64,000 nucleotides of DNA, taken from an uncultured Clostridia bacterium. GTDB lineage: Bacteria > Bacillota > Clostridia > TANB77 > UBA1234. The notes below the pieces were generated by a model. It had not been told where the DNA came from. It saw nothing but the letters and a program-made list of their open reading frames with translations, and did no database searches. The position numbers and the translations under genes are program-made. Below are positions 1 through 38,433 of the stretch, in pieces (the first letter of the stretch is position 1; every line of letters starts with the position of its first letter). The stretch spans positions 21,599 through 85,598 of the forward strand of contig CAKPAA010000007.1 in assembly GCA_934132775.1 (NCBI GenBank), written 5' to 3'.

Positions 1-813
1 GTACCTTTAAATTATAATATTATTCCTGACACGTTTAATGGCTATGTAATTGATAGTGCAAACCAAAACCAAATCAGCTTCACTCTTTTCGAAAATGAAG
101 ATCTACTTTATTATAGTGGTGATGTTTTAAATGTTGTTGATAATCGTTTCTCAATTGACACTACTGGATTTGTTGGCAAACACGATTTTGAAATTACAAA
201 TTCTTCAAACGAAGTTTCTAATTACACTTACTATTTCTCAGACGAGAATGGATATGTTGAGGATTACAAACTAGATGAGCTTGGTGATTTGAACGTTAAA
301 GTTTATGTAACAACAATTAAAGGCGTCAAAGTTATTTATACTGATAAGGAAAAAGATTTAATAAAAGACGTTGAAGAAATTATTTCTTCTCTACCAGAAA
401 AAATGCTTATAAACACAAAAGAAATTAAAATGCTTCCTGTTAACCATACTTCTGGTGCAGCTGGCATAACAAAATATGATAAGATTACTTTTTATAATCT
501 TTCAAAATATTCAAAAGCTACTATTAAAAACATTGTTATTCACGAAGTTGCTCACACTTGGGCATATGACTTAATGAGACAAAAAGCTATTGATTATTCT
601 TACACAGATTATAAAGAAGCTGTTAAGACTGATAGAAGATATCCAAGTAACTATGCAAGAAGGAATGTTGAAGCCGGTGATTATAGTGAAGACTTTGCAG
701 AAAGTGTATCTTTCTACTTCATAAATTCAAATTCATTCGCTAAGAAATACTCTTCAAGAGCTAGATACATCGAGAATTTAGTTAATACATATTTAAAAGT
801 TGAAGAACAATAA
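1..813 (+). CDS. Secreted zinc metallopeptidase, anthrax-lethal-factor-like (M34/ATLF-type HExxH domain), 5' partial; continues upstream of the window
   Basis: Frame 1 is open from base 1 into the listed ORF 289..813. HEVAH zinc-binding motif is followed by EDFAESVSFYF, resembling the third-ligand Glu region (NEAEFFAEAF) of M34 proteases. Confidence 0.5.
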   Translation, partial: VPLNYNIIPDTFNGYVIDSANQNQISFTLFENEDLLYYSGDVLNVVDNRFSIDTTGFVGKHDFEITNSSNEVSNYTYYFSDENGYVEDYKLDELGDLNVKVYVTTIKGVKVIYTDKEKDLIKDVEEIISSLPEKMLINTKEIKMLPVNHTSGAAGITKYDKITFYNLSKYSKATIKNIVIHEVAHTWAYDLMRQKAIDYSYTDYKEAVKTDRRYPSNYARRNVEAGDYSEDFAESVSFYFINSNSFAKKYSSRARYIENLVNTYLKVEEQ

Positions 814-827
814 ATAGGGATAAAATC

Positions 828-876
828 ATATGGGTAATTGGTAACAAAAACGTTGCTGATTACCCATATTTGCTAT
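828..876 (+). terminator. Rho-independent terminator after the metallopeptidase gene
   Basis: Perfect 11-bp inverted repeat atatgggtaat...attacccatat followed by a T-rich tract. Confidence 0.5.
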
Positions 877-898
877 TTTCTCCATTTTATGCTATAAT
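870..898 (+). promoter_or_regulatory. SigA-type promoter of dxs (TTGCTA, 17-bp spacer, TGcTATAAT extended -10)
   Basis: -35 and extended -10 hexamers with 17-bp spacing, about 17 nt upstream of the dxs RBS AGGTGA. Confidence 0.5.
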
Positions 899-914
899 CT
901 GCTAGGTGATTTTT

Positions 915-2837
915 ATGACAAGTAAAGTAATTGCAAAAGATAAAGATAAAAATATGTTAAAAAATCAAGAAAAAGTCCATTATAAAACTCTTGATAAAGT
1001 TAATAATATAGATGATTTAAAGAAACTAGATAAATCTGAACTACCTAATCTTGCAAGCGATATAAGAGCTTTTCTTATAGAAAATGTTTCAAAAACGGGT
1101 GGACACTTAGCTCCTAATTTGGGAGTTGTAGAACTTACAATAGCTCTCCATTACGTTTTTAACTCACCTGCTGACAAGATTATTTTTGACGTTGGGCATC
1201 AATGTTATGTACACAAGATTTTGACAGGTAGAAAAAATAAATTTTCTACACTTAGAAAGCTTAATGGTATTAGTGGTTTTCCTAAAACAAGAGAAAGCAA
1301 ACACGATATATTTAATACAGGTCACAGTAGCACGTCTATCTCCTCTGCACTTGGAATAGCCACAGCAAATAAGCTAAATGGCAAAAATGATTTTGCTATT
1401 GCAGTAATCGGAGACGGTGCACTAACTGGAGGACTAGCATTTGAAGGGTTAAACAACGCTAAAATTGATGACACTAATTTAATTGTAATTTTGAATGATA
1501 ATCAGATGTCAATATCTCCTAGTGTTGGAAATCTTTCAAATTACTTAAATCAAATGCGTTCTAACAGTTTGTATACTAACAGTAAAGCAAAGATCAAGAA
1601 TATTTTAGAACGTATTCCTCTAATTGGAAACGCAATAATTCATTTAGTTGAAAACTCTAAAAATGCTTTAAGACACGCTTTACTTCCTAACAGTGTTATG
1701 TTTGAGCAATTTGGATTTACGTATCTTGGCCCTATTGATGGACACAATTTAAATGATTTAACTAAAATTTTAGAACGTGCAAAAAGTGTTAGAAAGCCTG
1801 TTTTGATACATATTGTTACTAAAAAGGGAAAAGGCTATAAACCAGCAGAAGATAGACCAGACGTTTTTCACGGTGTTGGTAAATTTGACGTAGAAAGTGG
1901 AAAAATCAACACGTCATCTTCTGTATCATATTCAAAGAGATTTGGAGATGAACTTATTAAAAACGCAAAGTCAAATAATAAAATTGTTGCAATAACAGCA
2001 GCAATGCCTAAAAGCACTGGACTTTATGAATTTAGCAAAGAGTTCCCTAATAGATTTTTTGATGTTGGAATAGCCGAAGAACACGCTGTATCTTTTGCAT
2101 CAGGTCTTGCTTCTCAAGGTTTTATACCATTCTTTGCTGTTTATTCAACATTTCTACAACGCGCTTACGACGAAATCATACACGATATTGCCTTACAAAA
2201 CGCACACGTTGTTTTAGCAATTGATAGAGCTGGAATTGTCGGTGCTGACGGTGAAACACACCACGGAATATATGATTTATCTTATCTTTCTCATATTCCT
2301 AATATGACTATTATGGCACCAAAAGATGGCAATGAACTTGCTAAGATGATGGATTTTGCAATAAATTATAATGGTCCAGTTGCAATAAGATATTCACGAG
2401 ATGGTTATACTGATTCACTAACTGATGTAGCAGAATGTGAAATAGAACTTGGAAAAGCTGAGATTTTGCATACTGGAAAAGATTTAACAATTGTTGCAAT
2501 CGGCAAAACTGTTGCAACCGCATTAGAAGTTTCAAAGATTTTAGAAAAGAAGAAAATTTCTGCCGAAGTAATCAATGCACGCTTTTTAAAGCCATTAGAT
2601 AGTGATACTATTATGAATTCTCTAAGAAAGACAAAAAGAATAATAACTATTGAAGATAATGTAATAACAGGTGGGCTTGCTTCTGCCATTCAAAATCTAA
2701 TTATTAACGAAAAAGATATTTTGTTTAAAAAGTTTTTCGCATATCCAGACGAGTTTATAAAACACGGTTCGACTTCTGAAATAGAAGATGAATTTGGACT
2801 TTCATCTGAAAAAATTGCTAAAAAAATAAAATTTTAA
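915..2837 (+). CDS. dxs: 1-deoxy-D-xylulose-5-phosphate synthase
   Basis: GHQCYVHKILTGR and GDGALTGG thiamine-diphosphate motifs. Full-length transketolase-like architecture. ATG at 915 is preceded by the RBS AGGTGA; the track's GTG at 906 is an alternative. Confidence 0.93.
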   Translation: MTSKVIAKDKDKNMLKNQEKVHYKTLDKVNNIDDLKKLDKSELPNLASDIRAFLIENVSKTGGHLAPNLGVVELTIALHYVFNSPADKIIFDVGHQCYVHKILTGRKNKFSTLRKLNGISGFPKTRESKHDIFNTGHSSTSISSALGIATANKLNGKNDFAIAVIGDGALTGGLAFEGLNNAKIDDTNLIVILNDNQMSISPSVGNLSNYLNQMRSNSLYTNSKAKIKNILERIPLIGNAIIHLVENSKNALRHALLPNSVMFEQFGFTYLGPIDGHNLNDLTKILERAKSVRKPVLIHIVTKKGKGYKPAEDRPDVFHGVGKFDVESGKINTSSSVSYSKRFGDELIKNAKSNNKIVAITAAMPKSTGLYEFSKEFPNRFFDVGIAEEHAVSFASGLASQGFIPFFAVYSTFLQRAYDEIIHDIALQNAHVVLAIDRAGIVGADGETHHGIYDLSYLSHIPNMTIMAPKDGNELAKMMDFAINYNGPVAIRYSRDGYTDSLTDVAECEIELGKAEILHTGKDLTIVAIGKTVATALEVSKILEKKKISAEVINARFLKPLDSDTIMNSLRKTKRIITIEDNVITGGLASAIQNLIINEKDILFKKFFAYPDEFIKHGSTSEIEDEFGLSSEKIAKKIKF

Positions 2838-2859
2838 TAGTGATAAATATTGTTAAAAT

Positions 2860-2899
2860 AAGTAGTGAAGTACAACAAGTGTGCTCCACTACTTATTTT
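2860..2899 (+). terminator. Rho-independent terminator of dxs
   Basis: Hairpin aagtagtgaag...ctccactactt followed by ATTTTT. Confidence 0.55.
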
Positions 2900-3014
2900 T
2901 CTAGCATTACTTATTTTTATAAAGCACTATAAATTAGTATTTAAAAAAAGAAAAATAATATATAAAAGGTTATTAAATTTATTATTTTTCTATTGTATAA
3001 AAAATTAGACTTAC

Positions 3015-3323
3015 CTACATTCTTAACAATTCCTCTATTTCGCTTTTGCTCATATACCCCTCTACCCTTTTCTTTAGTTCTCCGTCTTTATACACTAAAA
3101 TTACAGGATACAAAAAAATTTTATTTCGCTCTGAAAATTCTTTATCGTTCTTCAATTTAAATCTCATAACTTTTATATCTGTATACTCTTTTTCTATTTC
3201 ATCAATGTACTTATCAACTGTTTGACAATGATAACAATCTATTATTAGATAGGCTATAAGGGTGGTTTTATCCTTCTTAGGAATTATTTGGTTTAGTTCT
3301 GCAATATCTAAAATTTCAATCAT
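3015..3323 (-). CDS. Thioredoxin-family protein (CYHC active site)
   Basis: About 100 aa with a CxxC motif (CYHC) in a thioredoxin-like context. Confidence 0.65.
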   Translation of the reverse strand: MIEILDIAELNQIIPKKDKTTLIAYLIIDCYHCQTVDKYIDEIEKEYTDIKVMRFKLKNDKEFSERNKIFLYPVILVYKDGELKKRVEGYMSKSEIEELLRM

Positions 3324-3529
3324 CTAATCTCACCACCTATTAAAATTTTCTCTTGTTTTTACTATAAAAAATGCCATAAAGGATGCCGTTTGTCTTTTTA
3401 GAAAAAGTATATTTTTCTAAAATATTATTCTTGCATCTCTTTATGACACTCTTTATTTAATAATATGTGTTTAATTTTTTATTGGTGATAATCAAAATAA
3501 TTTTAATTTTCACATTGTTTAATAAAAAT

Positions 3530-4606
3530 CTATTTTGTAGCATTTTTTGAAATGTTGAGCAGCACTCCACAAGAGCACAGCAATATTATAAGTGCCGTTC
3601 CACCGTAACTGAAAAATGGTAGTGGTATTCCTGTTACTGGGAATGTAGCTGAAACTATCGCTATATTAAGTATTGCTTGAACACCAACAAGTGATGTTAT
3701 TCCAACTGCAAGTAACGTTCCAAACATATCTGGTGCTTTTATCGCTATTGCAATTCCTCTCCATATAAAAACGCCAAATAGCAATACAACAAACATAGCC
3801 CCTATGAATCCTAACTCTTCTGCTAATATTGCAAAAATGAAGTCGTTATGTGGCTCTGGAATATACATATATTTTTGTGTACTGTTTCCAAGTCCAACTC
3901 CAAATAATCCACCACTTCCTATTGCATAAAGTGATTGTGCTGCTTGCCAGCCTGAGTCTAACAAGTCTTCAAATGGATTGAAAATATACTGCAATCTTTT
4001 TACTCTGTACGGTTCTTGTATTACTAGAAATCCAAGTCCAAGAAGTGCAACACCAACACACGATGCTATTTGCCAGCCTTTTAATCCAACTGTTACAACC
4101 ATTATTCCAGTTATTATACAAGTAATTGCTAATGCACTCATATGTGGTTCTTTATATAAAAGTGCGCATATTACACCAACAAATAGCATAATTTTGAACA
4201 GTTTTCGCCAAAACACTTTATCTTGTTTAGTTACAACTGAAAGCTCTGATGCCAAAAATACTATAAGTGCAATTTTCATAAGCTCTGACGGCTGAAATCT
4301 AATTCCGATTTTTATCCATCTTGTTGCACCTTTAACAGTTTGCCCTATTCCTGGCACTAAAACCAGCACTAATAAAACTATTGCTACAATTATTGCTATC
4401 ATCGAGAATTTTTTATATATTCTATAATCTACAAATGAAATAATAATCATTCCTGCAATTCCTATTATCGCATTTATAAGCTGACTTTTAAAATAAAAAT
4501 AACTGTCTCCCTCATATGTAAGTGCACTTGGGGCACTTGCGCTAAGCACCATTATTACCCCCATTGCAAGTAACACAAATATAGTTACTAATAATCCAAT
4601 ATCCAT
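3530..4606 (-). CDS. SEDS-family peptidoglycan glycosyltransferase (FtsW/RodA/SpoVE)
   Basis: Multi-pass membrane protein with an FtsW/RodA-like sequence, immediately downstream of mraY in the dcw cluster. Confidence 0.85.
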   Translation of the reverse strand: MDIGLLVTIFVLLAMGVIMVLSASAPSALTYEGDSYFYFKSQLINAIIGIAGMIIISFVDYRIYKKFSMIAIIVAIVLLVLVLVPGIGQTVKGATRWIKIGIRFQPSELMKIALIVFLASELSVVTKQDKVFWRKLFKIMLFVGVICALLYKEPHMSALAITCIITGIMVVTVGLKGWQIASCVGVALLGLGFLVIQEPYRVKRLQYIFNPFEDLLDSGWQAAQSLYAIGSGGLFGVGLGNSTQKYMYIPEPHNDFIFAILAEELGFIGAMFVVLLFGVFIWRGIAIAIKAPDMFGTLLAVGITSLVGVQAILNIAIVSATFPVTGIPLPFFSYGGTALIILLCSCGVLLNISKNATK

Positions 4607-4705
4607 TTGTTTTTTCTTTTTTCTTTTTGCTAATTCATTATTAACCTTTACAGCGTTTCTCTCCTGCGTAACTATATTATCGCCCCCTTTTATGCCTCAT
4701 TGAAT

Positions 4706-5692
4706 TTATATTATTGCCAAAGCTAATATTGCAAGCAATAACGTAACAGTCCAAAATGCTGGAACTATTATTGTTTCTTTTATGCCACACAATTCAAAAT
4801 GATGATGAATTGGTGCCATTTTAAATAATCTCTTTCCACCAGTAACTTTAAAATATACAACTTGTAAAATTACTGAAATCGCTTCAATAACACAAACACC
4901 CGCAACCACAATAAGTATAAGTGGCATTTTCAACATAAGTGCTACACTACAAAACGCACCACCTAGTGCAAGTGAACCTGTATCTCCCATAAATACTCGT
5001 GCAGGATACATATTGAAAAACAAAAATCCAATTGTAGTACCTGTAACAATTGCAGAAAATGCTGACATATCTTTATTTCCAAATCTCATAGCTGCAACTG
5101 TAAAAAACAACATTATTATTGCAGAGACTCCCGAAGCTAAGCCATCTAAGCCATCTGTTAAATTCAAACTATTCGTGCAAGCTAGTATTATAAACACTGC
5201 ACACGGTATATACAGCCAAACAGGAAGAGTAATATATTCTTTCAATATTGGTATATATGTTTCTGTTCCAAAATCTATATATGTTAAATAGACAACAAAA
5301 GCTGTCGCAACAATTATCAGTCCGAGCATCTTTAAACTTGGTTTTAACCCCTTTGGATTTTTCAAAATCAATTTTATAAAATCATCTATAAATCCAATAA
5401 GTCCATACCCAAGAGTTACAAGCGCAACTGGCAATACATTTTTATACTTTGAGGCAACTCCAATTGATGTTATCATAATTACTATCAGCATTATAATTCC
5501 ACCCATTGTTGGAGTTCCACTCTTTCTAAGATGTTCTTTTGGTCCATCATCTCTTACTACCTGCCCAATTTTAAATTTCTTCAAAATTGGAATAACTATA
5601 AATCCTAAAATAATTGTTAATATAAAAGATACAACTAACGCATCGGTTTCAACTGATGAATTTTCTATTACTGACTTTATTTTTTCCAACAT
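4706..5692 (-). CDS. mraY: Phospho-N-acetylmuramoyl-pentapeptide transferase
   Basis: MraY-like polytopic protein with the DDxxK/D motif (IGFIDDFIKL), in dcw position. Confidence 0.93.
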   Translation of the reverse strand: MLEKIKSVIENSSVETDALVVSFILTIILGFIVIPILKKFKIGQVVRDDGPKEHLRKSGTPTMGGIIMLIVIMITSIGVASKYKNVLPVALVTLGYGLIGFIDDFIKLILKNPKGLKPSLKMLGLIIVATAFVVYLTYIDFGTETYIPILKEYITLPVWLYIPCAVFIILACTNSLNLTDGLDGLASGVSAIIMLFFTVAAMRFGNKDMSAFSAIVTGTTIGFLFFNMYPARVFMGDTGSLALGGAFCSVALMLKMPLILIVVAGVCVIEAISVILQVVYFKVTGGKRLFKMAPIHHHFELCGIKETIIVPAFWTVTLLLAILALAII

Positions 5693-12377: not shown

Positions 12378-12590
12378 TGTTTTCGCAATTTTTTCCAAAA
12401 AAAATTCGACAAAATTTCTTATTTTTCGCCTTGTTCAAAAATTTACATCTCAAATTTTCTTAATATAACAGAAAGTATAAAAAAATTATCCGAATTTTTG
12501 CTTATATTTCAATAAAAAACGCCACCTTATAAACTGAAACTAAAAATGTTATTTTTTAATTTCAGAAATAAAGTGACGTTTAAAATAACC

Positions 12591-12640
12591 AAAAAAAGAC
12601 TGCACTCATTTCGAAAATAAATTCACTAATGAGTACAGCC
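12591..12640 (-). terminator. Rho-independent terminator of the 814-aa gene
   Basis: 13-bp imperfect stem ggctgtactcatt / aatgagtgcagtc followed by U7 on the minus strand. Confidence 0.5.
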
Positions 12641-12755
12641 TTCTATTTTTATATTAACTTTTAATTCAAGTTCATTACTTTATTTGATTATCACACTAAG
12701 TTACACTAATAATACTATTTAGACTTTCTGAATATTAAAAACACACATTGTCCGC

Positions 12756-15200
12756 TTATCTTTCATCTTTGTCGTTGTCTTGTTTATGTGCCTTCTCGTA
12801 AATATCTTTATATTGCTGTCTTACATACTTTCTTCCATCTTTGATTTCGTGTCCGTCTTTTTTTACATCAAACGTGCTATCTTTTATTCTTCTTGTTGGC
12901 TTAGGTTGCTCTGGTCTTACATATGAACGAGTCTTTTTTGGTGAATCTATCACTAATTTTTCTTGATTTTGAGAGTTTTCAATTGTTCTTGGCTTAAAGT
13001 TTACACTAAATTTGCCATTTTCATCAAAAACACATTCAAAAGTTGGTATGTATGGTTTTTTATTCATCTTTTCCAATTCTGTCTCCTCGTACTTCTGCAA
13101 CTTAGCATATCCAAATGTTGTTTTTCCTGTTGTTACTAATCTCGCATCACAACTATGTTTGTATGGACCATATGGAGATTTTAATGCGTTGCATACATCT
13201 TGTGCTGTTAATGCTGAATCTAATGCAATTGCCATTTTAAATTGATTTTCTGGTATTGTTGGATCATCCCAAGTTCTTATTGCATCACTGCTTAAATCTA
13301 ATTTTCCATCTAGTTCATCTCTAGTTTTAGTTTTAAATCTTCCCCAAACTCTCTTTGCTGGATTTGATGACATCATTCTTGTAAAGTCTGTATCTTTTCC
13401 GCCATTTTCTTTTTTCATTTCTTTGCATAGTTTCTTTAATCCATCTTCGCCATACATCTCTAGCATTTTTCCTCTTAAATTCCCAATAGCTTTGTCTAAT
13501 GCTTTTGATGGATTTTTAATGTATGAATCAATATCTTTTTCTTTACGAATTAGCTTATCGCCTCTCTTCTCAAAGAAACTTAATTTTCCATCTTTCACAT
13601 ACATTTTATTTTCATTTTCAAGTAAAAACATATCTATGTCTTTTGGCATTGAAATACTTTCGCAATCCAATTCAGTAGATTTACTTTTCTCTTCTTTTTG
13701 ACCAAATAATCTTTCAAAGAAACTAGGTTTCTCTTTAGCTGGTAATTTTGTTTCTTCCTTTTTCTGCTGTGTTGAAGTTTCAGGTGTTTTGTTACTATTA
13801 TCCTGAGTTAAAACTGACTTAGCATCACTTAGCTTACTTGGTTGTCCCTTACCATCATTCTTTGGCAAATCTGATGGCTTAGTTTTGTTATTACTTGCTG
13901 GCTGATCATTTTTACTTTTATCTTTATCATTTGCAGACTGGTTCTTTCCATCTTTATCTTTCCTTGCCTCTGTCTGATTCTTTTGATCTTTATTAGTGTT
14001 CATTGTTTGATTAGTCGCTTTATCACTATTTTTATCTTGATTTGCGTCTTTTACCGTCTTTTCTGCATTTTGCCAAGAAGCCTCATTTTTACGATATTTT
14101 AGATGTTTTTCTTTTTCTCTTTCAACAGCTTTTCTTACGTCTGTCTCTCTCTTTTCCATTTTGTATTTTGAATGTATTCCATCTCTTTCTGCTTCAAACA
14201 CACTTTTTCTACGTTCTATATCCTCTTGCTTTCTCTGAAGTGTTGATCTATAATTCTTTAAATTTTGTAAGTTACCATTTAATGTATCAACGTCTATTTT
14301 TATTGCATTAGGGACATCTTTATTGAAATTTTCTCCAATTTCAAAAGCCGACTTACTCAAAGAAAATTTCTGTTCTATATCTTTATTATTTTCTAATAAA
14401 TCCAATAATTCAGAAGTTAGTCTATCAAATTCATCAGGATCGTACCCAGGTTCATAAACTCTTGTTCCGTCAGCTGCTATATGAAAATGGTTACTAAATT
14501 CTTGATATCTAGCATACTTTTCGTTAATCTGTCTTACTAATTCTTCGGCTCTATCTATGTCATCTATATCTTCCTTATTTTCTTTATATTCATCATCAAA
14601 TTGCTTTATGTATTCTTCCAACTCATTTAATCTATTTTGGTCAAAGTTCAAAGTTTCTTCGGACACAATTCCCCTTGCTCTATTTAATTTTTCACCAGCT
14701 AATTTCAATGCCTTTGCAACATCTTCGTATTTATCTCCTGTCTTATATCTATCTTCTAAGGTTACTTCAATATTATCTAATCTACGCACTAACATTCTTC
14801 TTTTATCTTCTGATAAATTGGGTTGAGATAGCTCTTGCATAATTTCGTCTATCTCTCTTAGCTTTTGCGTAAGCTCTAATATTTCCTGAGATGCTTCGCT
14901 TATTTCTTTTCTATATTGTTTTTCACTTTCCAAAATAGCCCTAGCATCCTCTAATCTATTAAACGCCTCTCCTGCTTTAATTTGTTCTTGTCTAAGTGTA
15001 TCCTCATTTTTCAATATTTCTGCATCAAGTTCTGATATTGCAGCATTATCCCCTTTTCCTATAGCATCTACCTTCTTATTCTTTAATCTTCTAGTCATTA
15101 TTGCCCTGTTTACAACAGCTTCAAACTGCATATTATAATTTTTTTCTAGTCTTTCAATATTTTGTTCTAACTCGTTGATTAACTTACTTAATTCATCCAT
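12756..15200 (-). CDS. Large hypothetical cytoplasmic protein (814 aa): N-terminal coiled-coil, K/D/N/Q-rich disordered middle, C-terminal globular region
   Basis: Long ORF with RBS GGGGGAT. No signal peptide or transmembrane helix and no recognisable catalytic motif. Carries its own terminator. Confidence 0.6.
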   Translation of the reverse strand: MDELSKLINELEQNIERLEKNYNMQFEAVVNRAIMTRRLKNKKVDAIGKGDNAAISELDAEILKNEDTLRQEQIKAGEAFNRLEDARAILESEKQYRKEISEASQEILELTQKLREIDEIMQELSQPNLSEDKRRMLVRRLDNIEVTLEDRYKTGDKYEDVAKALKLAGEKLNRARGIVSEETLNFDQNRLNELEEYIKQFDDEYKENKEDIDDIDRAEELVRQINEKYARYQEFSNHFHIAADGTRVYEPGYDPDEFDRLTSELLDLLENNKDIEQKFSLSKSAFEIGENFNKDVPNAIKIDVDTLNGNLQNLKNYRSTLQRKQEDIERRKSVFEAERDGIHSKYKMEKRETDVRKAVEREKEKHLKYRKNEASWQNAEKTVKDANQDKNSDKATNQTMNTNKDQKNQTEARKDKDGKNQSANDKDKSKNDQPASNNKTKPSDLPKNDGKGQPSKLSDAKSVLTQDNSNKTPETSTQQKKEETKLPAKEKPSFFERLFGQKEEKSKSTELDCESISMPKDIDMFLLENENKMYVKDGKLSFFEKRGDKLIRKEKDIDSYIKNPSKALDKAIGNLRGKMLEMYGEDGLKKLCKEMKKENGGKDTDFTRMMSSNPAKRVWGRFKTKTRDELDGKLDLSSDAIRTWDDPTIPENQFKMAIALDSALTAQDVCNALKSPYGPYKHSCDARLVTTGKTTFGYAKLQKYEETELEKMNKKPYIPTFECVFDENGKFSVNFKPRTIENSQNQEKLVIDSPKKTRSYVRPEQPKPTRRIKDSTFDVKKDGHEIKDGRKYVRQQYKDIYEKAHKQDNDKDER

Positions 15201-19535: not shown

Positions 19536-20159
19536 TTAGTATGTTAATCCAGCATTTGTTGCAGAATTGTCAAGAGGTCCATTTACTGAACTTACAAGAA
19601 CTACAGGAGTTGTAATATTTGGGAAAGTAATACTTGATGTATCTCCTGTCAAAGCTGCATAAGTAGTTTTATCTATAGCTAATGTATCATTTAGATAATA
19701 CTTATCTTCATATTTGTATGGAGGCCATACGAATACTTGACCATCATAAGTTACAGCATACTTAACTTCATAATTTGAAGCTGCTGGTGTATTAACTTTG
19801 ATTGTTGGTAATTTAATACCAATTGATTTTTCTGCTTTTGCTCCATCAATTATTGTGTATTGTGTTAATTGAGCTATTGGTGTAATGTCTCCACTTTGAG
19901 TTCCATCTTTACCTTCAGCTATTGTCTTGTAAGATTGTGCATCTGTAATTTCATTACCAATTGCTGCTTGATCACCTTTGAATTCTGTTGCAGATTTTTT
20001 GAAAGCATCTCTAACTTCACCAATGTTTGATACAAACTTAGAATAGTTTGCCTTTTCAATTGTTGATGTTGAAGAGTTGAATGCGATTGCTGCTAAGATA
20101 ATTACAACGATAATTGTAATTACAAGTGCTATTAAAGAAACACCTTTTTGATTTTTCAT
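19536..20159 (-). CDS. Pilin-like protein (prepilin-type N-terminus without Glu5), 207 aa
   Basis: N-terminus MKNQKG|VSLIALVITIIVVIILAAIAF is a class III signal-like hydrophobic segment. The first ~50 aa and the conserved block YTIID..IGIKLP..VNTP..VKYAVT..G.VF.WPP are shared with the 507-aa paralog at 36910..38433. Confidence 0.6.
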   Translation of the reverse strand: MKNQKGVSLIALVITIIVVIILAAIAFNSSTSTIEKANYSKFVSNIGEVRDAFKKSATEFKGDQAAIGNEITDAQSYKTIAEGKDGTQSGDITPIAQLTQYTIIDGAKAEKSIGIKLPTIKVNTPAASNYEVKYAVTYDGQVFVWPPYKYEDKYYLNDTLAIDKTTYAALTGDTSSITFPNITTPVVLVSSVNGPLDNSATNAGLTY

Positions 20160-20188
20160 AATAAATTTCCTCCTTTTATTTTTGCTTT

Positions 20189-20216
20189 TCTAGAGTATGC
20201 TTAAAATTACTCTAGA
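20189..20216. promoter_or_regulatory. Candidate operator: perfect 9-bp inverted repeat TCTAGAGTA-N10-TACTCTAGA upstream of the pilin-like gene, with a third half-site at 20245..20253
   Basis: Seen directly. Lies 17 to 45 nt upstream of the RBS of the gene starting at 20159. The TACTCTAGA(CT) unit recurs at 20208 and 20245. Confidence 0.4.
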
Positions 20217-20416
20217 CTTCTTTGTTAGTCTTAAAAGCTCTTACTACTCTAGACTAGCAAAATAATGATTTACGTTTTTTGTCAATACTCGCACAATATC
20301 GACTAAAAAACTTATTAAATCCTTTTACAACTTTGATTATAACCAATCGGTTTTAATATTGCAATAGTTATGTTCATTAAATTATTGTTACAAACTTGTT
20401 ACAGTTTTGTAACATA

Positions 20417-21784
20417 TTATAGGTATGCATCGAACAAGAATGAACCCATGTATACTTCCATAATTGGTTTTAATACTAATATTACGAATGCTATCATAAC
20501 TATACCCATGATAGACATACTTATTTGTGGTAATATCTTTATTGTTCTTTCTATTGTTATGTTTATTTCATCTTCCATGTACTCAACAATTTTGTTTATC
20601 ATATCGGTTATATCTGTTTCCATACCTATTCTAAGCATCTCTAATGCCATTCTTGGCATATTAGGCAAAGTTTCAAATGGTTCAACCCATGAATCACCTT
20701 GCTGTAAATTATCTGTCGCTGATTCAATAACAGATAAAACCACGTAGTTACTTACTGTTCCTTTACTTACTTCAAGAGCGTCTTGCAATTTAGCATTGTT
20801 AGCTAAGTTTAATTGCATAGCTTCAAAAAACTTCTGTAATTGAAGTCTTAATATAAGTCCTCCAAATACAGGCAATTTTAATTTAAACATATCCCATTGA
20901 TACTTTCCATGAATAGTAGACTTCCAAAGAATAAATGCTGTTACCAAGCCCGCTACCACTGCAACACCAATATACCAATATTTTATTACAAGCTTTATAA
21001 AATTTGACGCAGCCATAGTTGCTGCTGGAATTTGGTTTGTTAATCCCATGCTAGCATATAGGTCTTCCAATATTGGCACACCAACCATAATACCTACAAC
21101 TGTTCCAACTAGCATAAGCACTGCTTGTAGTAAAGGTCCAACTAAAGCTTTTTTCAATGCTTTTGTTCTTTTTGTACTTGTTTCTAAGTAATTCATTGCT
21201 TGAAACAACGCATTTGTAAGTGAACCTGAAAGTTCACCAACCTTGATTGTCTCAATATAAATATCTGGGAATATTTTATTGTAATATTCTAGTGTAGAAT
21301 ATATATATTCACCAGCTTCAACACCGTTTAGAATATCTTCAATAACACTTCTCATAGCTGGGTTATCTGTATTTTCTAATAATGTTGCCAATGCTCTTAT
21401 GTTAGTAAAATTTGCCCTTTTTAACAAGTATAAACTCTGTGTAAATGAAAAAACATCCTTTTTAGTTACTCTATATAAAAATGATAAATCGAGTTCAAAT
21501 GGAAGTTCTATTTCCATCTGCAAACCAGTTTTCTCTTTCTTTTTCTGATTTTCTATCATTTTTTGCTTTGCATATTTACTAACGGATGCACTTGAAGAGG
21601 TTATCGCATTCCTTTTTGCTTTCTTGTTGCTAAGTCCACCTAGTGCTTTACTTTGTTGAACTGATACAGGTTGTAGTCCATTATTTTTTAGTCTTTCCAA
21701 AACACTTTCACGTGATTCATCATCTATGGTGCCATTAACAACTTTACCATTTGACAGAACTGCTCTATATCTGAATTTAGCCAT
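20417..21784 (-). CDS. pilC: Type IV pilus platform protein (PilC/GspF family)
   Basis: PilC-like N-terminus (MAKFRYRA..G..V.G) and two T2SS-F domains in a polytopic membrane protein. Confidence 0.88.
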   Translation of the reverse strand: MAKFRYRAVLSNGKVVNGTIDDESRESVLERLKNNGLQPVSVQQSKALGGLSNKKAKRNAITSSSASVSKYAKQKMIENQKKKEKTGLQMEIELPFELDLSFLYRVTKKDVFSFTQSLYLLKRANFTNIRALATLLENTDNPAMRSVIEDILNGVEAGEYIYSTLEYYNKIFPDIYIETIKVGELSGSLTNALFQAMNYLETSTKRTKALKKALVGPLLQAVLMLVGTVVGIMVGVPILEDLYASMGLTNQIPAATMAASNFIKLVIKYWYIGVAVVAGLVTAFILWKSTIHGKYQWDMFKLKLPVFGGLILRLQLQKFFEAMQLNLANNAKLQDALEVSKGTVSNYVVLSVIESATDNLQQGDSWVEPFETLPNMPRMALEMLRIGMETDITDMINKIVEYMEDEINITIERTIKILPQISMSIMGIVMIAFVILVLKPIMEVYMGSFLFDAYL

Positions 21785-21822
21785 TGTTTTCTTCCTTTCT
21801 TATAAGTAATCTCAGCATAATT

Positions 21823-23472
21823 TTAATATGCTAATTTCTTCTTTACCTCACTTATTACTGTACGTCCATCTAGTACTTTATTAAAAGCATCTACAACAAG
21901 AGGTCTATATCCAGTTTCATAGGCTTTCTTTCTTATGTCGGTTATTGTGCCATCTGATATTATCAAATTTTTTATTTCTTCATCTACAATTAACATTTCA
22001 TTTGCAGCAATTCTTCCATAAAAGCCAGTGTAGTTGCATTTCTCGCATCCTACTGGTTCATATGTATGTTTACCTGTTAGGTCAAATTCATAATTATATC
22101 TTGTACCTATCTTTTTAAATTCATTTACTTCATCTTCTGTGAACTCTCTTTCTCTGCAACAATCTTTACATATTCTTCTTACAAGTCTTTGTGCTATTGA
22201 TGTTGCTAAAACGCTTCCTATATCGTAACTTGATATTCCAAGTTTTCTAAGTCTTGTGATAACCTCTATACTATCAACTGTGTGAATTGTTGACAACACA
22301 AAGTGACCTGTTTGACCTGCCTGTATTGCAATCTCAGCTGTTTCTTTATCTCTTATTTCTCCAAGTAGTATGATGTCTGGGTCTTGTCTTAAAATTGTTC
22401 TTAGTGAGTCAGCAAATGTAACCCTCTTATTTACTTCAACTTGATTTATTCCTGGGATTCTTATTTCAACTGGGTCTTCAACTGTTGTTATATTTATTTC
22501 GGGTCTATTCAACAAAGACAATGCACTATACAAAGTTGTTGTTTTACCTTCACCAGTTGGGGCCGCAATAACTGCAATACAGTTTCTCTTATTAAAGCAT
22601 TTATTCATAATTGTTTCTTGATCTGGATATCCCAACTCTTCCAAACCAGAAATTGTTGACTCTTTCTTCATAAGTCTTAATACAAACTTTTCACCGTATA
22701 TATTCATCTGTGAAGATACACGAATATTGTAGTCTGGATATGCTGTTATTCTACCATCTTGTGAAAGCTGTATTTCTTGGTGCATATTTGATATTGATTT
22801 TAATCTACCAATAACCTGCGCTTGCTTAGATTTTTCTATCGTAGCAATTATAAGTAACTCACCATCAATTCTGAACCTAACTCTTACTTTGTCATCCATT
22901 GGTTCGAAGTGAATATCACTCGCTCTTTTTACCATTGCAGATCTAATTATATTATCTATTAGCTGTGCTACGTCTTTTCCATAGGAATCAAAATTTTTCT
23001 CTTCTTCTGATTTCTTTTCTATGTCTCTAACTATATCATCTATGTATGATTCAAAAGTAACATAAACTTCCATTGAAAGACCTTTACTAAGCAATATTAA
23101 ACGTATCATCTTCTGTAAATCCTTATCTGATGGATCAGCAAAAGCAACTTTTATTCTATTCTCATTTAATTCAAAAGGTAATACCTTATGCTGTTTTACT
23201 ATATCCATTGACAAATACTTAGAAAAGTCAAAATTAAACATACCAGGCTCAAGTTTTATCCCCTTTACTCCAATACCTTCTGCAATTGTATTTAATAGCT
23301 CTTGTTCATCACATACTCCAAGTTTATGAAAAGCTTCTCCTAATTTCGTTCCTTTGTGTTCTCTTTGATATACAATTGCTTTATCTATATCAGACTCATT
23401 TATCAAGCCTTTTCTTATAAGCATAACACCTAATGGTGCTTTTTTCATTGTATTATTATCGAAGATTGCCAT
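21823..23472 (-). CDS. pilB: Type IV pilus assembly ATPase (PilB/GspE family)
   Basis: Walker A APTGEGKTTT, Asp/Walker B DPDIILLGEIRD, His box GHFVLSTIHT and a C-terminal tetracysteine. Confidence 0.92.
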   Translation of the reverse strand: MAIFDNNTMKKAPLGVMLIRKGLINESDIDKAIVYQREHKGTKLGEAFHKLGVCDEQELLNTIAEGIGVKGIKLEPGMFNFDFSKYLSMDIVKQHKVLPFELNENRIKVAFADPSDKDLQKMIRLILLSKGLSMEVYVTFESYIDDIVRDIEKKSEEEKNFDSYGKDVAQLIDNIIRSAMVKRASDIHFEPMDDKVRVRFRIDGELLIIATIEKSKQAQVIGRLKSISNMHQEIQLSQDGRITAYPDYNIRVSSQMNIYGEKFVLRLMKKESTISGLEELGYPDQETIMNKCFNKRNCIAVIAAPTGEGKTTTLYSALSLLNRPEINITTVEDPVEIRIPGINQVEVNKRVTFADSLRTILRQDPDIILLGEIRDKETAEIAIQAGQTGHFVLSTIHTVDSIEVITRLRKLGISSYDIGSVLATSIAQRLVRRICKDCCREREFTEDEVNEFKKIGTRYNYEFDLTGKHTYEPVGCEKCNYTGFYGRIAANEMLIVDEEIKNLIISDGTITDIRKKAYETGYRPLVVDAFNKVLDGRTVISEVKKKLAY

Positions 23473-23575
23473 TATAAATCCTCCTCTTTTGTATCAATTA
23501 TAAACCCTAATATTATTTTATAATATTTAAAATATAAGTCAATATAAAATGCTTAGTTTCAAACATTTACCAGCG

Positions 23576-23764
23576 CTACATCCTATCAGCTATATCATAT
23601 GCATTTTCTATATCAGAAGAGTATGTTTTTTGTAACTGTTCTATTTGAGACTCCTGCAAAACATAAGCACTAACACTTCTTCCATACAAAGCTATACCAT
23701 ATAAAGCAAGTACAAGCATTGACATTAACGCCGCCATTGTTATTGAACCTCTTTTTTTCCACAT
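23576..23764 (-). CDS. Minor pilin-like protein (short)
   Basis: Prepilin-like leader MWKKRG|SITMAALMSMLVLAL. Start is placed at the internal Met to avoid overlap with the upstream gene; the ORF track extends to 23830. Confidence 0.45.
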   Translation of the reverse strand: MWKKRGSITMAALMSMLVLALYGIALYGRSVSAYVLQESQIEQLQKTYSSDIENAYDIADRM

Positions 23765-23777
23765 ATTCTTCGCCCCT

Positions 23778-24248
23778 TTAATAACCTTTTCCAACTTTGA
23801 TATTATAGTCGGAAGTATAAACATTATCATCTTTTGTATAACTTAATTTTATTTTAATAATCTCTTGATTTTCTGCATTATCAAAACCAAATCCTACATT
23901 TGAAAGCTTGTCTGTTATTAAAACATTGTTTCTATATAGCTCATAAATATTAAACGTTTGATTTTCTTCATTTCTGTTATCAGAACTAAATTTAACAGTA
24001 TATTCTGTGCCATTGCTAAGTCTTAAATGTCTATCTGAAAATTCTAGCACTCTTTCAGAAGCTTTTATGTCATCTATTAAAAAAGCTTGCGCCTTTAACA
24101 CTTCGCTACTTTTGGTGCTCTTCACTGTTAAATCAGCTATCTGTGACATAAAATTAATATTCAAAAATGCAAGCGTGCCCAAAACAACAACCGACACAAT
24201 TATATAAACAGTAAGCGAAAGCATCGTTACACCTTTTTGATCATTCAT
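23778..24248 (-). CDS. Pilin-like/pseudopilin protein without Glu5
   Basis: MNDQKG|VTMLSLTVYIIVSVVVL N-terminus, in the pilus operon. Confidence 0.55.
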   Translation of the reverse strand: MNDQKGVTMLSLTVYIIVSVVVLGTLAFLNINFMSQIADLTVKSTKSSEVLKAQAFLIDDIKASERVLEFSDRHLRLSNGTEYTVKFSSDNRNEENQTFNIYELYRNNVLITDKLSNVGFGFDNAENQEIIKIKLSYTKDDNVYTSDYNIKVGKGY

Positions 24249-24704
24249 TTACATTTCCTCCTCAACTTTCAAAGTTTTTAGCTCTATTGTTCTTTTGCTC
24301 GAAGGGTCATTTTTCTTTGTGTAAAATTGTACTTCCGCATTTAATAATTTCACCTTTGAATCATCATAACTTACCCCATTTTTAGGTGGAAGATTTTCTA
24401 TCGTAGTTGTAACTGTTAAATTATATTTTTTTACTTCTGTTAACGTAGTTCTTTTTCCATTTTCATCTTCAATTACACGTGTGTCTGCTGGGTCATCTGT
24501 AATTGAATAATCCTCAATTCCAATAAGTTCACTCTCAACAGCCTTAATTAGATAAGACATAGCTATATTTTTTTGCTCTACAAGCCTATAATTTGCGCAA
24601 GTACCACTAAGCATTGATATAGCACAAGATAAAAATATTGAAATAAGCACTAATCCAACTCCAACTTCAACAAGAGAATAACCTTTTTGAGATTTAAATT
24701 TCAT
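24249..24704 (-). CDS. Type IV prepilin with a canonical N-terminal cleavage/methylation motif
   Basis: KG|YSLVEV gives Gly-1 and Glu+5, followed by a hydrophobic helix. Confidence 0.65.
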   Translation of the reverse strand: MKFKSQKGYSLVEVGVGLVLISIFLSCAISMLSGTCANYRLVEQKNIAMSYLIKAVESELIGIEDYSITDDPADTRVIEDENGKRTTLTEVKKYNLTVTTTIENLPPKNGVSYDDSKVKLLNAEVQFYTKKNDPSSKRTIELKTLKVEEEM

Positions 24705-24733
24705 ATTAAAACTCCTTCATACTTTAATTAAAA

Positions 24734-25540
24734 TTAAGCTATATTATTATTTATAAGAGTAGCAATTGGCATAAGATAATTAGTAAATATTATTGCAATT
24801 ACACTACCTATACTTAAAAAATATCCAAATGGTATTTCTTTATATTTTTTTATAACCGTTATTAGACTTCCAACAATAACAGCCAGCACAATTGAAATAA
24901 CTTGCATTCCAAAGCCAAGGAACAATCCTATCATCGCTATATATTTAATATCTCCAAAGCCGAATGGAAGTTTTTCATTTTTTAGCATCTTTTTAATAAT
25001 CACATCTATTAATATCAAAATCAATGGTATAACTAAAAATCCTAATAAATTATATAGCATACTTTCACTTAAAAATATTGCTTTATATAGTCCATTTGCC
25101 AAACCTATGAATATTCCATATAGCAACGCACCATCATGTATTTCAAGCTTTTCTTTATCAATTCCGCCTATTATGTATAATGCACACATAAACAAATAAA
25201 CAAAAAAAAGATTTATAAATTCATATATCGAACTATACACATCTATTTTAGCAAGTAATGCTATTAAAACAAATGTAAGTCCTGAAAAGATTTCTAATAG
25301 CACATATCTACTTCTTATTTTTTCTTTGCAATATCTGCACTTTCCACCTAAAAAAATGTAACTAAATATAGGTATCAAATCCCAAAAATTTAATCTATGA
25401 TTGCAAGTTGTGCAGTGTGATCTTTGATGTGTTATATCTTCTTTACGTGGCAATCTATATACTGCAAGTGAAAAGAAGCTTCCAAAAACAGAGCCACATA
25501 TAAATATTGCTAAGTATAATATAATGTTCATATCTTTCAT
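24734..25540 (-). CDS. pilD: Prepilin peptidase (A24 family, PilD)
   Basis: N-terminal Cys-rich zinc-binding region (HCTTCNHRL..DLIPIFSY..GGKCRYCKEKI) and a polytopic membrane body. Confidence 0.88.
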   Translation of the reverse strand: MKDMNIILYLAIFICGSVFGSFFSLAVYRLPRKEDITHQRSHCTTCNHRLNFWDLIPIFSYIFLGGKCRYCKEKIRSRYVLLEIFSGLTFVLIALLAKIDVYSSIYEFINLFFVYLFMCALYIIGGIDKEKLEIHDGALLYGIFIGLANGLYKAIFLSESMLYNLLGFLVIPLILILIDVIIKKMLKNEKLPFGFGDIKYIAMIGLFLGFGMQVISIVLAVIVGSLITVIKKYKEIPFGYFLSIGSVIAIIFTNYLMPIATLINNNIA

Positions 25541-32752: not shown

Positions 32753-33177
32753 TTTAAAATTCCTCCCTTTATATAAATTTTATTAAAATATAAGCTTTCA
32801 AAAATGGCACACAATAGTAAGAAACTATCTTTACCATTTAAAGCAAATTTTCAAATAGCTTGCTTAAATCAAAGATTTTATACAATAGGAATGCAACAAA
32901 CTTTACAACTTGTTATACTTTCCTATTGTATAAAAAAAGCGCTCTATCCCAACTATCTAGGATAAAGCGTTAATATACTTTATTTATACCACCTACATAC
33001 AATCATATGAGTTCTCTATAACGTGAGAAAACCGTTGACATTTACTACAAGTTCAACATCAAAGCTCCCAGGTGATTTTCAGCATTTCATCCGTTACGAA
33101 ACTTTCAGCACTTGTCTCGCTCTCTAAAACTTCATAAAATACATACTGTCCTTTTCAAAGCTATTATCAAATCTTAC
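32753..33177 (-). promoter_or_regulatory. ileS 5' leader with an intrinsic-terminator attenuator; T-box-like but lacking a canonical T-box sequence
   Basis: Extended -10 TGATATAAT promoter near 33185..33193. Stem-I-like AGAGAGCGAGACAAGTGCTGAAAG, a partial AGGTGGTA element, then the terminator at 32934..32972, all upstream of the ileS RBS. Confidence 0.4.
32934..32972 (-). terminator. Leader terminator (attenuator) of ileS
   Basis: 11-bp stem gcgctttatcc/ggatagagcgc with one G-U pair, followed by U7 on the minus strand. Confidence 0.55.
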
Positions 33178-36909: not shown

Positions 36910-38433
36910 TTATTTAATATTCCAAGCAGTTGATGCAGATGAACCATCAGTTGAAGAATTTGAAATATCTAATAAATTAGCTGATATAGAGATTACAGGA
37001 CGAAGACCATACGAAGGCGCGCCCACGTAGCCAGTCGAAATGACTGAGTAGTAGCCGTAGACATAGGTAGTATAAGCCGTGCGTAAGCCATAGTAGGCAA
37101 AGGCACCCTCAGAGGCCAAGCCGACATACGGCGAAGCGAGCCAGCCTCTATTGTCTACATCTCCTTTTAGTATATCGCCAATCTTCGCATTGGCACTACT
37201 CGGATTATAACCATAATATGTCCTTGTTATTAAAACTGGTTCATCTTTTGACTTTAATTCAATATAATCAGTTTCACTTGTTGATTTATGTGTTACTCCA
37301 TTCTTGTCATCCCAGTTATAGAATCTTGGGTACTCTACTCCACTTGCTAAACTTGCAGTGTGCTTTTTAGCTGTGTATGTGTGTCCTCCTGCTACTACAT
37401 CTTTCAAATCACTATCCGCCGTATCAGCTGGATACCAAGCCCATCTTGTTAGATTTGTTGATGGAATATAATCACAAGCCTTATTCAAATCTTCTATTGT
37501 CATACTTCTTGCTGTTATTCCCTTATCTGCATTTGAATATAACTTCTCACATAATCTATGCAATTCGTTTGCACCATATAAATATCCTGCTGCACCCTTA
37601 ATAGTTACTTTGTTTACGTACCCATCTGTTGTTAGCATAACTTTTCCTGTTTCATTATCGATACTCAAAATTCTCCACTTTGCTGTTGCATCTGTTGAAA
37701 GAGTTTCTTTTGTGTAACCGGTTTTTCTTGGATCTGTTTCAACATTCTGCACCGCTGTTGGTACGTAGTTCACATAGTCTCCTACTTTTATTTTACTTGT
37801 TATTTCTTCAAACTCTTTCTTAGACAAGCCATCGTCCAAAAGTTCTCTATTTTCAAGGTTACTACTCTCATTTATTTGCAACTTAAAAGTTGTACCTGCA
37901 ACTGTTATATCAACATCTCCTGAACTAGAAACAAGTGAACTATCTACAAATTCCTTGTCTCTTATGTTATATGCATTCTCGCTTGGAAATGGTGGCCAAA
38001 TAAACACCTTACCATTTTTAGTTACAGCATATTTAACATCAACATTAGTCTCACTTGGAGTATTCACTCTCATTACTGGTAACTTAATTCCAATATCTGC
38101 ACTCTTATCAATTATTGTATAATCAGGTGTCCTGCTTTCTACCACAAAATCACTATCAGTCCTACCACCCTTAGCTACATAATTAAACACTTGTCCATCA
38201 GTAATCTGAGAACCCTTCGCAAGCATTGCACCTTTAACCTCTATCATCTTCTCATTTATAGCCTGTTCAACTTCACTAATATTAGACACAAACTTAGAAT
38301 AATTCGCCTTTCCAATAGTGCCCGTTGAACTATTAAAAGCAATAGCTGCTAAAATAATTACTACTATAATCGTAATAACCAATGCAATAAGAGAAATACC
38401 TCTCTCACTATTTCTTAATTCAAAACATTTCAT
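36910..38433 (-). CDS. Pilin-like protein with a large C-terminal C-type-lectin/FGE-like domain carrying a hypervariable-region-like patch (507 aa)
   Basis: N-terminus ERG|ISLIALVITIIVVIILAAIAF is paralogous to the 19536..20159 product. C-terminus NRGW...YYGLR...YGLRPV resembles the RGGSW...GFRxV framing of diversity-generating-retroelement target domains. Confidence 0.6.
   Translation of the reverse strand: MKCFELRNSERGISLIALVITIIVVIILAAIAFNSSTGTIGKANYSKFVSNISEVEQAINEKMIEVKGAMLAKGSQITDGQVFNYVAKGGRTDSDFVVESRTPDYTIIDKSADIGIKLPVMRVNTPSETNVDVKYAVTKNGKVFIWPPFPSENAYNIRDKEFVDSSLVSSSGDVDITVAGTTFKLQINESSNLENRELLDDGLSKKEFEEITSKIKVGDYVNYVPTAVQNVETDPRKTGYTKETLSTDATAKWRILSIDNETGKVMLTTDGYVNKVTIKGAAGYLYGANELHRLCEKLYSNADKGITARSMTIEDLNKACDYIPSTNLTRWAWYPADTADSDLKDVVAGGHTYTAKKHTASLASGVEYPRFYNWDDKNGVTHKSTSETDYIELKSKDEPVLITRTYYGYNPSSANAKIGDILKGDVDNRGWLASPYVGLASEGAFAYYGLRTAYTTYVYGYYSVISTGYVGAPSYGLRPVISISANLLDISNSSTDGSSASTAWNIK
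36995..37200 (-). other. GC-rich, adenine-depleted, NNC-codon-biased patch resembling a diversity-generating-retroelement variable region
   Basis: Roughly 200 nt with host-atypical codons (GGC, GCC, TAC, GTC, CGC, TCG, CCG), including the GC-only run GTGGGCGCGCC, embedded in an otherwise AT-rich gene. Confidence 0.4.

Follow-up and report, generated by a model that had tools for sequence, protein, structure and literature searches.

The question raised by this locus is how a sharply GC-rich and adenine-poor patch came to lie within one gene of a low-GC genome. The gene encodes a 507-aa protein and belongs to a 64-kb stretch of DNA from an uncultured Clostridia bacterium (the whole stretch is referred to here as the window). 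Very probably, the patch is a variable region (VR) written by a diversity-generating retroelement (DGR), and the gene a DGR target. This reading, already put forward in an initial annotation made from the letters of the window, is supported by a template repeat (TR) whose differences from the VR are confined to adenines, by a retroelement cassette in a sister strain, by variability across populations, and by the predicted fold of the protein. The gene and its patch are laid out as follows:

36910..38433, minus strand: target (variable-protein) gene, 507 aa, with a pilin-like N-terminal module and a C-terminal lectin-fold module that includes the VR (open reading frame and translation)
37011..37142, minus strand: VR core, 132 nt, residues 431-474 (comparison with the TR of L012 and L009, two contigs introduced below)
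36986..37010, minus strand: 3' continuation of the TR homology, a candidate end resembling an initiation of mutagenic homing (IMH) element (8 mismatches, 7 at non-adenine positions)

When measured over 150 nt at a time, G+C content peaks at 56% (37000-37149), while the 64 kb as a whole average 31.4%. The coding strand of the VR core (37142 to 37011) contains 12.9% A, 30.3% C, 26.5% G, and 30.3% T (G+C 56.8%), whereas the same gene outside the core contains 37.1% A and has a G+C content of 34.6%; the compositional anomaly first noticed is thus genuine. The peptide originally quoted for it, NRGWLASPYV...YGLRPVISI, is indeed encoded by the open reading frame (ORF) at 36910..38433 on the minus strand.

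Searches for a template were based on a pattern made of the alignment columns invariant across six VRs. Even when 3 mismatches were tolerated, this pattern matched the patch alone in the 64-kb window, with no second copy. Scanning a genome collection with a VR-framework pattern yielded one further VR (L008, in a Clostridia metagenome-assembled genome), and scanning a collection of viral contigs yielded no match, which argues against a phage-borne element. A looser invariant-column pattern led to a single metagenome contig, L009, in which every codon that varies among the VRs reads AAC or AAT, the flanks are non-coding, and a stop codon in the VR frame lies just upstream; these properties indicate a TR rather than another target. 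A search with the peptide that this TR would encode gave no match, implying that the ORF of the TR is not called as a gene. An M18 aminopeptidase gene beside the L009 TR was also followed as a lead to the cassette and led instead to L010, a contig with a further target.

The 90%-identity cluster of the window protein includes a second protein, P0241, whose gene has the same body as that of the window and a different VR. Its contig, L012, is 99.2% identical to window positions 47993-38502, and a cassette in the order MSL, Avd, TR, spacer RNA, and reverse transcriptase (RT) lies directly downstream of the orthologous gene. The template with adenines at the mismatching positions and the adjoining RT, both anticipated in the initial annotation, were therefore located, together with an Avd-like gene, in a close sister strain. 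The L012 cassette comprises:

MSL: MutS-like ORF, 140 aa (MutS_I, 1e-09, 39 bits, above the cut-off of 20.6)
Avd-like ORF, 120 aa (bAvd, 8.8e-06, 26.6 bits, cut-off 40; DivGenRetAVD, 7.8e-06, 26.1 bits, cut-off 80; full model length)
12430-12586: TR, identical to the L009 TR
12885-13829: RT, 314 aa, starting 299 nt past the TR (RVT_1, 2.8e-16; IGNMTSQ and YQDD motifs)

By its sequence motifs, the L012 RT is of the DGR type. The Avd-like ORF fits in position and size, with both profile scores sub-threshold. The spacer between TR and RT aligns over the full Rfam motif RT-14 (RF02921), at 40.5 bits in L009 and 34.9 bits in L012 against a gathering score of 48.1; this match appeared only in a narrow search and was missed when a 3.2-kb slice of L012 was searched against Rfam, and it is accordingly reported as sub-threshold. 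RT-14 is one of the 'RT' motifs, which have been detected close to genes for reverse transcriptases (PMC5737381). When the spacers of L012 (12580-12734, plus strand) and L009 (2406-2559, minus strand) are compared by eye, one hairpin with apparent compensatory changes can be seen, which suggests that RT-14 may be a DGR spacer RNA, like RT-10 in phage BPP-1. The place of the RT is occupied in L009 by three overlapping frames (656-2055, plus strand) that lack a Pfam match and have the look of a frameshifted transposase-like gene; this copy of the cassette may be disrupted. Past the TR spacer of L009 (2315-2460) lies an intergenic element of ~140 nt, 72% identical to one in the window (12511-12650, between mraZ and an 814-aa ORF); A and T runs border its terminator-like hairpins, and the element is apparently a repeat dispersed over intergenic regions.

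With the TR of L012/L009 as the reference, the VRs compare as follows:

Window VR, first 132 nt: 20 of 37 TR adenine sites changed (9 to G, 9 to T, 2 to C); 0 of 95 non-adenine sites mismatched
L012 cis VR: 16 of 37 TR adenine sites changed; 0 of 97 non-adenine sites mismatched
L001b, L003b, and L010 VRs: 15-25 of 37 TR adenine sites changed; 2-7 non-adenine mismatches; Fisher p from 3e-8 to 3e-12

In the gene body, no more than 4 of ~1150 nt separate the window gene from its L012 counterpart, yet the two are different at many adenine sites of the VR. The two target copies of L003 (L003a and L003b) show the same few departures from the TR at non-adenine positions, which is what a slightly diverged TR in that strain would produce. 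Alignment to the TR also redefines the limits of the element: the interval first proposed, 36995-37200, does contain it, but the element itself runs from 37142 to 36986, so that its 5' edge lies ~58 nt inside that interval and its 3' end 9 nt beyond. Similarly, the GC-only run GTGGGCGCGCC, which had been likened to the GC-rich element ending many VRs, is present, but it is not a conserved terminal element; in the VR/TR alignment it corresponds to the template GTGAACACGCC, from which it is derived through three A-to-G changes.

The same pattern recurs among relatives. A total of 540 homologues of the 507-aa protein were detected, all without Pfam annotation and with variability concentrated near the C-terminus. 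In the 40 closest (68-89% identity), nearly all variation falls between NRGW and GLRPV, within a fixed framework of W431, A433, Y448, G449, S466, G476, R478, and P479. Five DNA copies from human-gut metagenome contigs (Hadza, Nepal) have variable bases paired at codon positions 1-2, with the third position staying C or T. Column entropy in a 111-sequence alignment is 3.1-3.7 bits at the 12 codons that read AAY (AAC or AAT) in the template, compared to a mean of 1.05 bits at residues 13-424. The suggestion that strain variability would be confined to adenine-corresponding positions is borne out to this extent: the variation of strains and paralogues is concentrated in the patch, at template-adenine codons.

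The predicted structure also agrees with that of a DGR variable protein. An AlphaFold2 model of the 507-aa protein, built on 111 sequences, has a mean pLDDT (predicted local distance difference test) of 90.3 and consists of a helix (residues 15-72), a beta-rich pilin-like module with beta-strands at residues 105-187, and a C-terminal module of ~290 aa:

36913..37791, minus strand: C-terminal module, ~290 aa, residues 215-507, C-type-lectin-like fold, recurring singly or in tandem in other surface proteins

The VR sits at the C-terminus within this predicted module. Structure comparison of the model relates the module to C-type-lectin folds, with TvpA and TaqVP, both DGR variable proteins, among its matches, in agreement with the fold first proposed. 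A Foldseek search with the whole 507-aa model returned no match, and neither did a phmmer search of the C-terminal module against PDB sequences.

The N-terminal part of the protein and the genes related to it suggest where such a module might be displayed. The relevant features, all on the minus strand, are:

38329..38433, minus strand: class III signal-peptide-like N-terminus, with leader MKCFELRNSERG followed by hydrophobic tract ISLIALVITIIVVIILAAIAFNS (read from sequence)
37834..38433, minus strand: pilin module, ~residues 1-200, paralogous to the 207-aa pilin gene at 19536..20159 (direct repeats D1/D2, 73-74% identical DNA)
19536..25540, minus strand: type IV pilus gene cluster (Pfam matches; N-termini)
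19536..20159, minus strand: pilin paralogue, 207 aa, heading the pilus cluster
20417..21784, minus strand: PilC-like T2SSF platform protein
21823..23472, minus strand: PilB-like T2SSE ATPase
23778..24704, minus strand: two pilin-like ORFs
24734..25540, minus strand: prepilin peptidase A24

The pilus cluster thus lies 11-19 kb from the target gene, and its T2SSF, T2SSE, and Peptidase_A24 genes (20417-25540) are at a distance of 11-18 kb. A class III signal peptide is defined as a short hydrophilic leader ending in Gly or Ala, followed by ~21 hydrophobic residues (PMC8179133); the leader MKCFELRNSERG, with the cleavage context ...ERG/ISLIALVITIIVVIILAAIAF (the slash marks the cleavage site), has this form. 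Position +5 is Ala rather than the conserved Glu, and the target has no Pfam match to the N-terminal methylation motif (PF07963/IPR012902), for which the 207-aa paralogue itself scores 18.7 bits, below the 21.2-bit cut-off. Sequence matches of the target to pilins are weak (PilE1 8pfb, E = 0.014; NCBIfam prepilin-peptidase-dependent pilin, E = 0.004), and no significant structural match of the model to a pilin was obtained. Given this weak sequence evidence and the Ala at +5, the protein is called pilin-like. Around the cleavage site, both the target (38398-38433, minus strand) and the presumed major pilin (19536-20159) read G/[VI]SLIA, with Ala at +5, and the pilin-like ORF at 24249..24704 has the canonical G/YSLVE. 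By analogy with PilB and PilC of Streptococcus sanguinis, the 507-aa protein may be presented by the type IV pilus.

Taken together, these elements suggest a mechanism in several steps. The TR, ~157 nt long, would be transcribed together with the structured spacer RNA and copied into cDNA by the DGR-type RT with Avd and possibly MSL, a small MutS-domain-I protein, with misincorporation opposite template adenines. The cDNA would then replace the VR and thereby randomise the 12 AAY codons, along with other codons that contain A, on the face of the C-type-lectin fold that binds the ligand. The lectin-fold module is grafted on a type IV pilin-like module, and the prepilin peptidase would most likely cleave the product for display on the type IV pilus, where it could act as a variable adhesin.

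Several observations weigh against a DGR at work on this gene. The 64-kb window contains no TR, Avd, MSL, or RT of its own; these elements are known from the sister strain and a metagenome contig rather than from the window's own genome, and the Avd and RT-14 matches fall below curated thresholds. Over the final 25 nt of the TR homology, the window copy has 7 non-adenine mismatches and the L012 cis copy none. L013, an independent assembly that likewise lacks a cassette, is 98.0% identical to the window over 13.5 kb, and its VR differs at one TR adenine. Membership of the pilins, finally, depends on weak sequence matches, with Glu5 absent.

How the window copy came to stand apart from a cassette can be partly read from its surroundings. 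No DGR-type RT motif occurs in any of the six frames of the window, and tblastn searches of the window with the sister-strain MSL, Avd, and RT gave nothing better than E = 0.12; together with the pattern search, these results agree with the initial annotation that no RT, Avd, or template repeat lies in the window, and the choice it posed, between diversification in trans and a fossil patch, still stands. Synteny with L012 stops exactly at the stop codon. Beyond it, the window runs on into a radical-SAM gene, an arrangement also seen after the second tandem target of L003. In leader and 3' tail, the window gene belongs to another paralogue type than the L012 gene, which indicates that paralogues recombine. 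Since the same layout is found in L013, the cassette-less arrangement is probably real and not a mis-join. The near-unchanged VR of L013 implies either that the window copy is not rewritten often or that its 3' half was recently exchanged, and such an exchange is possible because the 3' half of the gene is more alike between the window strain and L013 than the flanks are.

The best surviving alternative is that the VR is frozen, that is, written by a DGR whose cassette has since been lost (e.g., by recombination of target paralogues), leaving what is now ordinary coding sequence. The lack of a cassette within 64 kb, the break in synteny with L012 exactly at the stop codon, the recombination implied by a leader and tail of another paralogue type, the near-identical VR in the same layout of L013 despite 2% flank divergence, and the mismatched 3' end of the TR homology all speak for it. 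However, the absence of any non-adenine difference to the TR over 132 nt means that a loss of the cassette would have to be very recent, and the other cassette-distant copies (L001, L003, and L010) are also adenine-biased. For cellular DGRs, targets lying over 100 kb away from the RT have been documented (PMC5758913). In addition, the genes that follow the L012 cassette (ftsY-like, ligA, and others) are missing from the window and are unlikely to be dispensable, which points to rearrangement rather than deletion. A frozen VR is therefore a serious possibility, though one that we place distinctly below an even chance, and we lean somewhat towards a window copy that is a live, remote target on which a cassette elsewhere in the same genome would act in trans.

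The 3' end of the VR is where cis and distant copies part. Over the last 25 nt, the L012 cis VR equals the TR (GTGGGGGCTTCGTCCC), whereas all cassette-distant copies have common G-to-T/C changes (the window copy reads GTATGGTCTTCGTCCT). This mismatched end may mark the homing boundary, a lower efficiency of homing, or a different TR 3' end in the window's genome. In four sequences examined for a DNA hairpin downstream of the VR, none better than in shuffled sequence was found.

Target genes of this kind are numerous. Several occur per genome, with two tandem copies in L001 and two in L003, and additional copies were found on separate contigs of equal coverage from the same sample. L010 encodes, at 2752-5574 on the minus strand, a surface protein of at least 940 aa (ending at the contig end) with two tandem ~290-aa modules, the first of which alone has a GC-rich VR matching the TR (22 of 37 adenine sites changed, 4 non-adenine mismatches). 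More broadly, the C-terminal module was found in 1003 clusters (50% identity, E <= 0.001), often at the C-terminus and sometimes with up to seven repeats in giant proteins. Genes of the PD-(D/E)XK transposase family (Rpn/YhgA-like) stand directly beside target paralogues (L003 12195-13127, L005 11797-12708, and L008 1449-2360) and may promote recombination between them; a 310-aa ORF between the two L003 targets, considered as a candidate RT, was rejected as a member of this family.

A source for the patch that involves no retroelement can also be considered, namely gene conversion among paralogous pilin-like genes (as in pilE/pilS-type systems) or a horizontally acquired in-frame mosaic. The many paralogues with mosaic leaders and tails, the PDDEXK_2 (Rpn-like) genes beside several copies, and the foreign-looking base composition of the patch are what this explanation would lead one to expect. 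It fails on differences that are confined to template adenines, on an A-rich, non-coding template with AAY at every variable codon, and on the adjacent Avd and RT, and we regard it as very unlikely; recombination clearly occurs, but it acts on the flanks and is not the source of the VR pattern. Least credible of all is a compositional or selective artefact, in which GC-rich codons in a Tyr/Gly/Ala/Ser-rich binding loop are combined with ordinary positive selection, because, although Tyr/Gly/Ser-rich binding surfaces are common and the composition of the peptide fits, the framework codons of the patch are also GC-rich and identical to the TR, and the variability tracks the template base (A versus non-A) rather than protein position alone.

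With the patch read as a DGR-written VR, a broader arrangement can be proposed tentatively, at a little short of an even chance: at least 4-5 paralogous lectin-module surface proteins of this gut Clostridia lineage, both pilin-like adhesins and giant multi-module proteins, would all be rewritten in trans by one chromosomal MSL-Avd-TR-RT cassette, and recombination among the paralogues (in leaders, tails, and copy number, possibly aided by the Rpn-like genes) would add a second combinatorial layer. If true, this would be the first account of type IV pilus adhesins being diversified by a DGR in a monoderm commensal, and the orphan RT-14 RNA motif would be tied to DGR priming.

Several other features of the window were recorded. 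One further stretch of the 64 kb, at 59145-59644, is as GC-rich as the patch and unrelated to it; it was considered as a TR or second VR and rejected, and it corresponds to an unrelated small membrane-protein ORF (164 aa, 59110-59604, plus strand). This region comprises ~500 nt at 50-56% GC in a 31% GC genome, with a terminator hairpin 3' of the ORF; it is not A-poor, has no TR/VR or Rfam match, and looks like a foreign islet. For the 814-aa ORF mentioned above (12756-15200, minus strand), which is located between the dcw cluster and lgt, Pfam gave no match. A T-box leader (32961-33167, minus strand; 74 bits, gathering score 93) precedes the isoleucyl-tRNA synthetase gene, and L10 and L20 leaders were also detected; all three leaders are ordinary.

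DGRs are densest in the human gut, yet, to our knowledge, little has been described of their targets outside Bacteroides and phages. The present locus is a specific case that can be checked, from an uncultured lineage of Clostridia found in gut metagenomes of Hadza and Nepali origin. Its 12 fully randomisable codons allow 15^12, or ~1e14, protein variants from AAY codons alone, and several target copies occur per genome, some beside the retroelement and some far off. Because the 3' end of the VR is precisely where cis copies and distant ones diverge, the effect of such differences on the efficiency of trans-homing becomes a testable question, as does the occurrence of hypervariable tips on the type IV pili of monoderms. 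For annotation, the locus shows that an abrupt patch of high GC and low A content within a low-GC genome reliably marks a DGR target, even where the contig carries no cassette.

Much of what is described here has precedents. Adenine-specific transfer from TR to VR, Avd, MSL, C-type-lectin targets, and multiple and remote targets have all been documented (PMC5758913), and DGR-diversified pilus tip adhesins have been described for the type V pili of Bacteroides (bioRxiv 10.1101/2024.11.15.621889). Thus, with both remote targets and pilus adhesins on record for DGRs, the case is less unusual than the initial annotation suggested. One survey (PMC11661182) records a 'G-type pilin' domain containing a VR as a rare type, and in the literature searched no paper joins DGRs with a prepilin or pseudopilin.

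Among known systems, the MSL-containing DGRs ('Architecture D', Wu et al. 2018, PMC5758913), which include that of Legionella pneumophila, are alike in the one-strand order of target with VR, MutS-like gene, Avd, TR, and RT, in a C-terminal VR of lectin-type fold, and in being cellular rather than phage-borne; the present case differs in the pilin-like start of the target, the scattered paralogous targets, and a window copy that lies apart from the cassette. Treponema denticola TvpA (PDB 2Y3C) has 13% sequence identity and no pilin module, and its DGR belongs to the HRDC-containing Architecture C rather than to the MSL type (PMC5758913). The DGR of Bordetella phage BPP-1 (Mtd/Avd/TR/Brt) has in common adenine-specific TR-to-VR transfer, an Avd accessory gene (Avd-like here), a C-terminal VR in a C-type-lectin fold, and a structured RNA between TR and RT (RT-10 there, RT-14-like here; PMC5737381), but it is phage-borne, with a single cis target and a GC-rich IMH plus hairpin, to which no comparable hairpin was detected here. 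The Bacteroides type V systems resemble this one as gut commensals with a C-type-lectin head on a pilin scaffold, modular loci, and many pilin paralogues; they are type V, assembled from lipoproteins by strand exchange, and found in Bacteroidota, whereas here the pilus is type IV, the signal peptide class III, the host a member of the Clostridia, and the accessory genes are different. Finally, PilB (with a vWA module) and PilC (with a lectin module) of Streptococcus sanguinis (PMC8179133, PMC9934059) likewise have a C-terminally grafted binding module for presentation on a filament, in a similar bimodular architecture and size (~450-500 aa); their modules are genetically static, in contrast to the DGR-diversified C-type-lectin fold described here, with its Ala at +5 and its score below the Pfam N_methyl threshold. 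The mechanism at this locus is thus ordinary, the architecture of the target is one that has scarcely been described, and the cis and distant copies offer a useful contrast.

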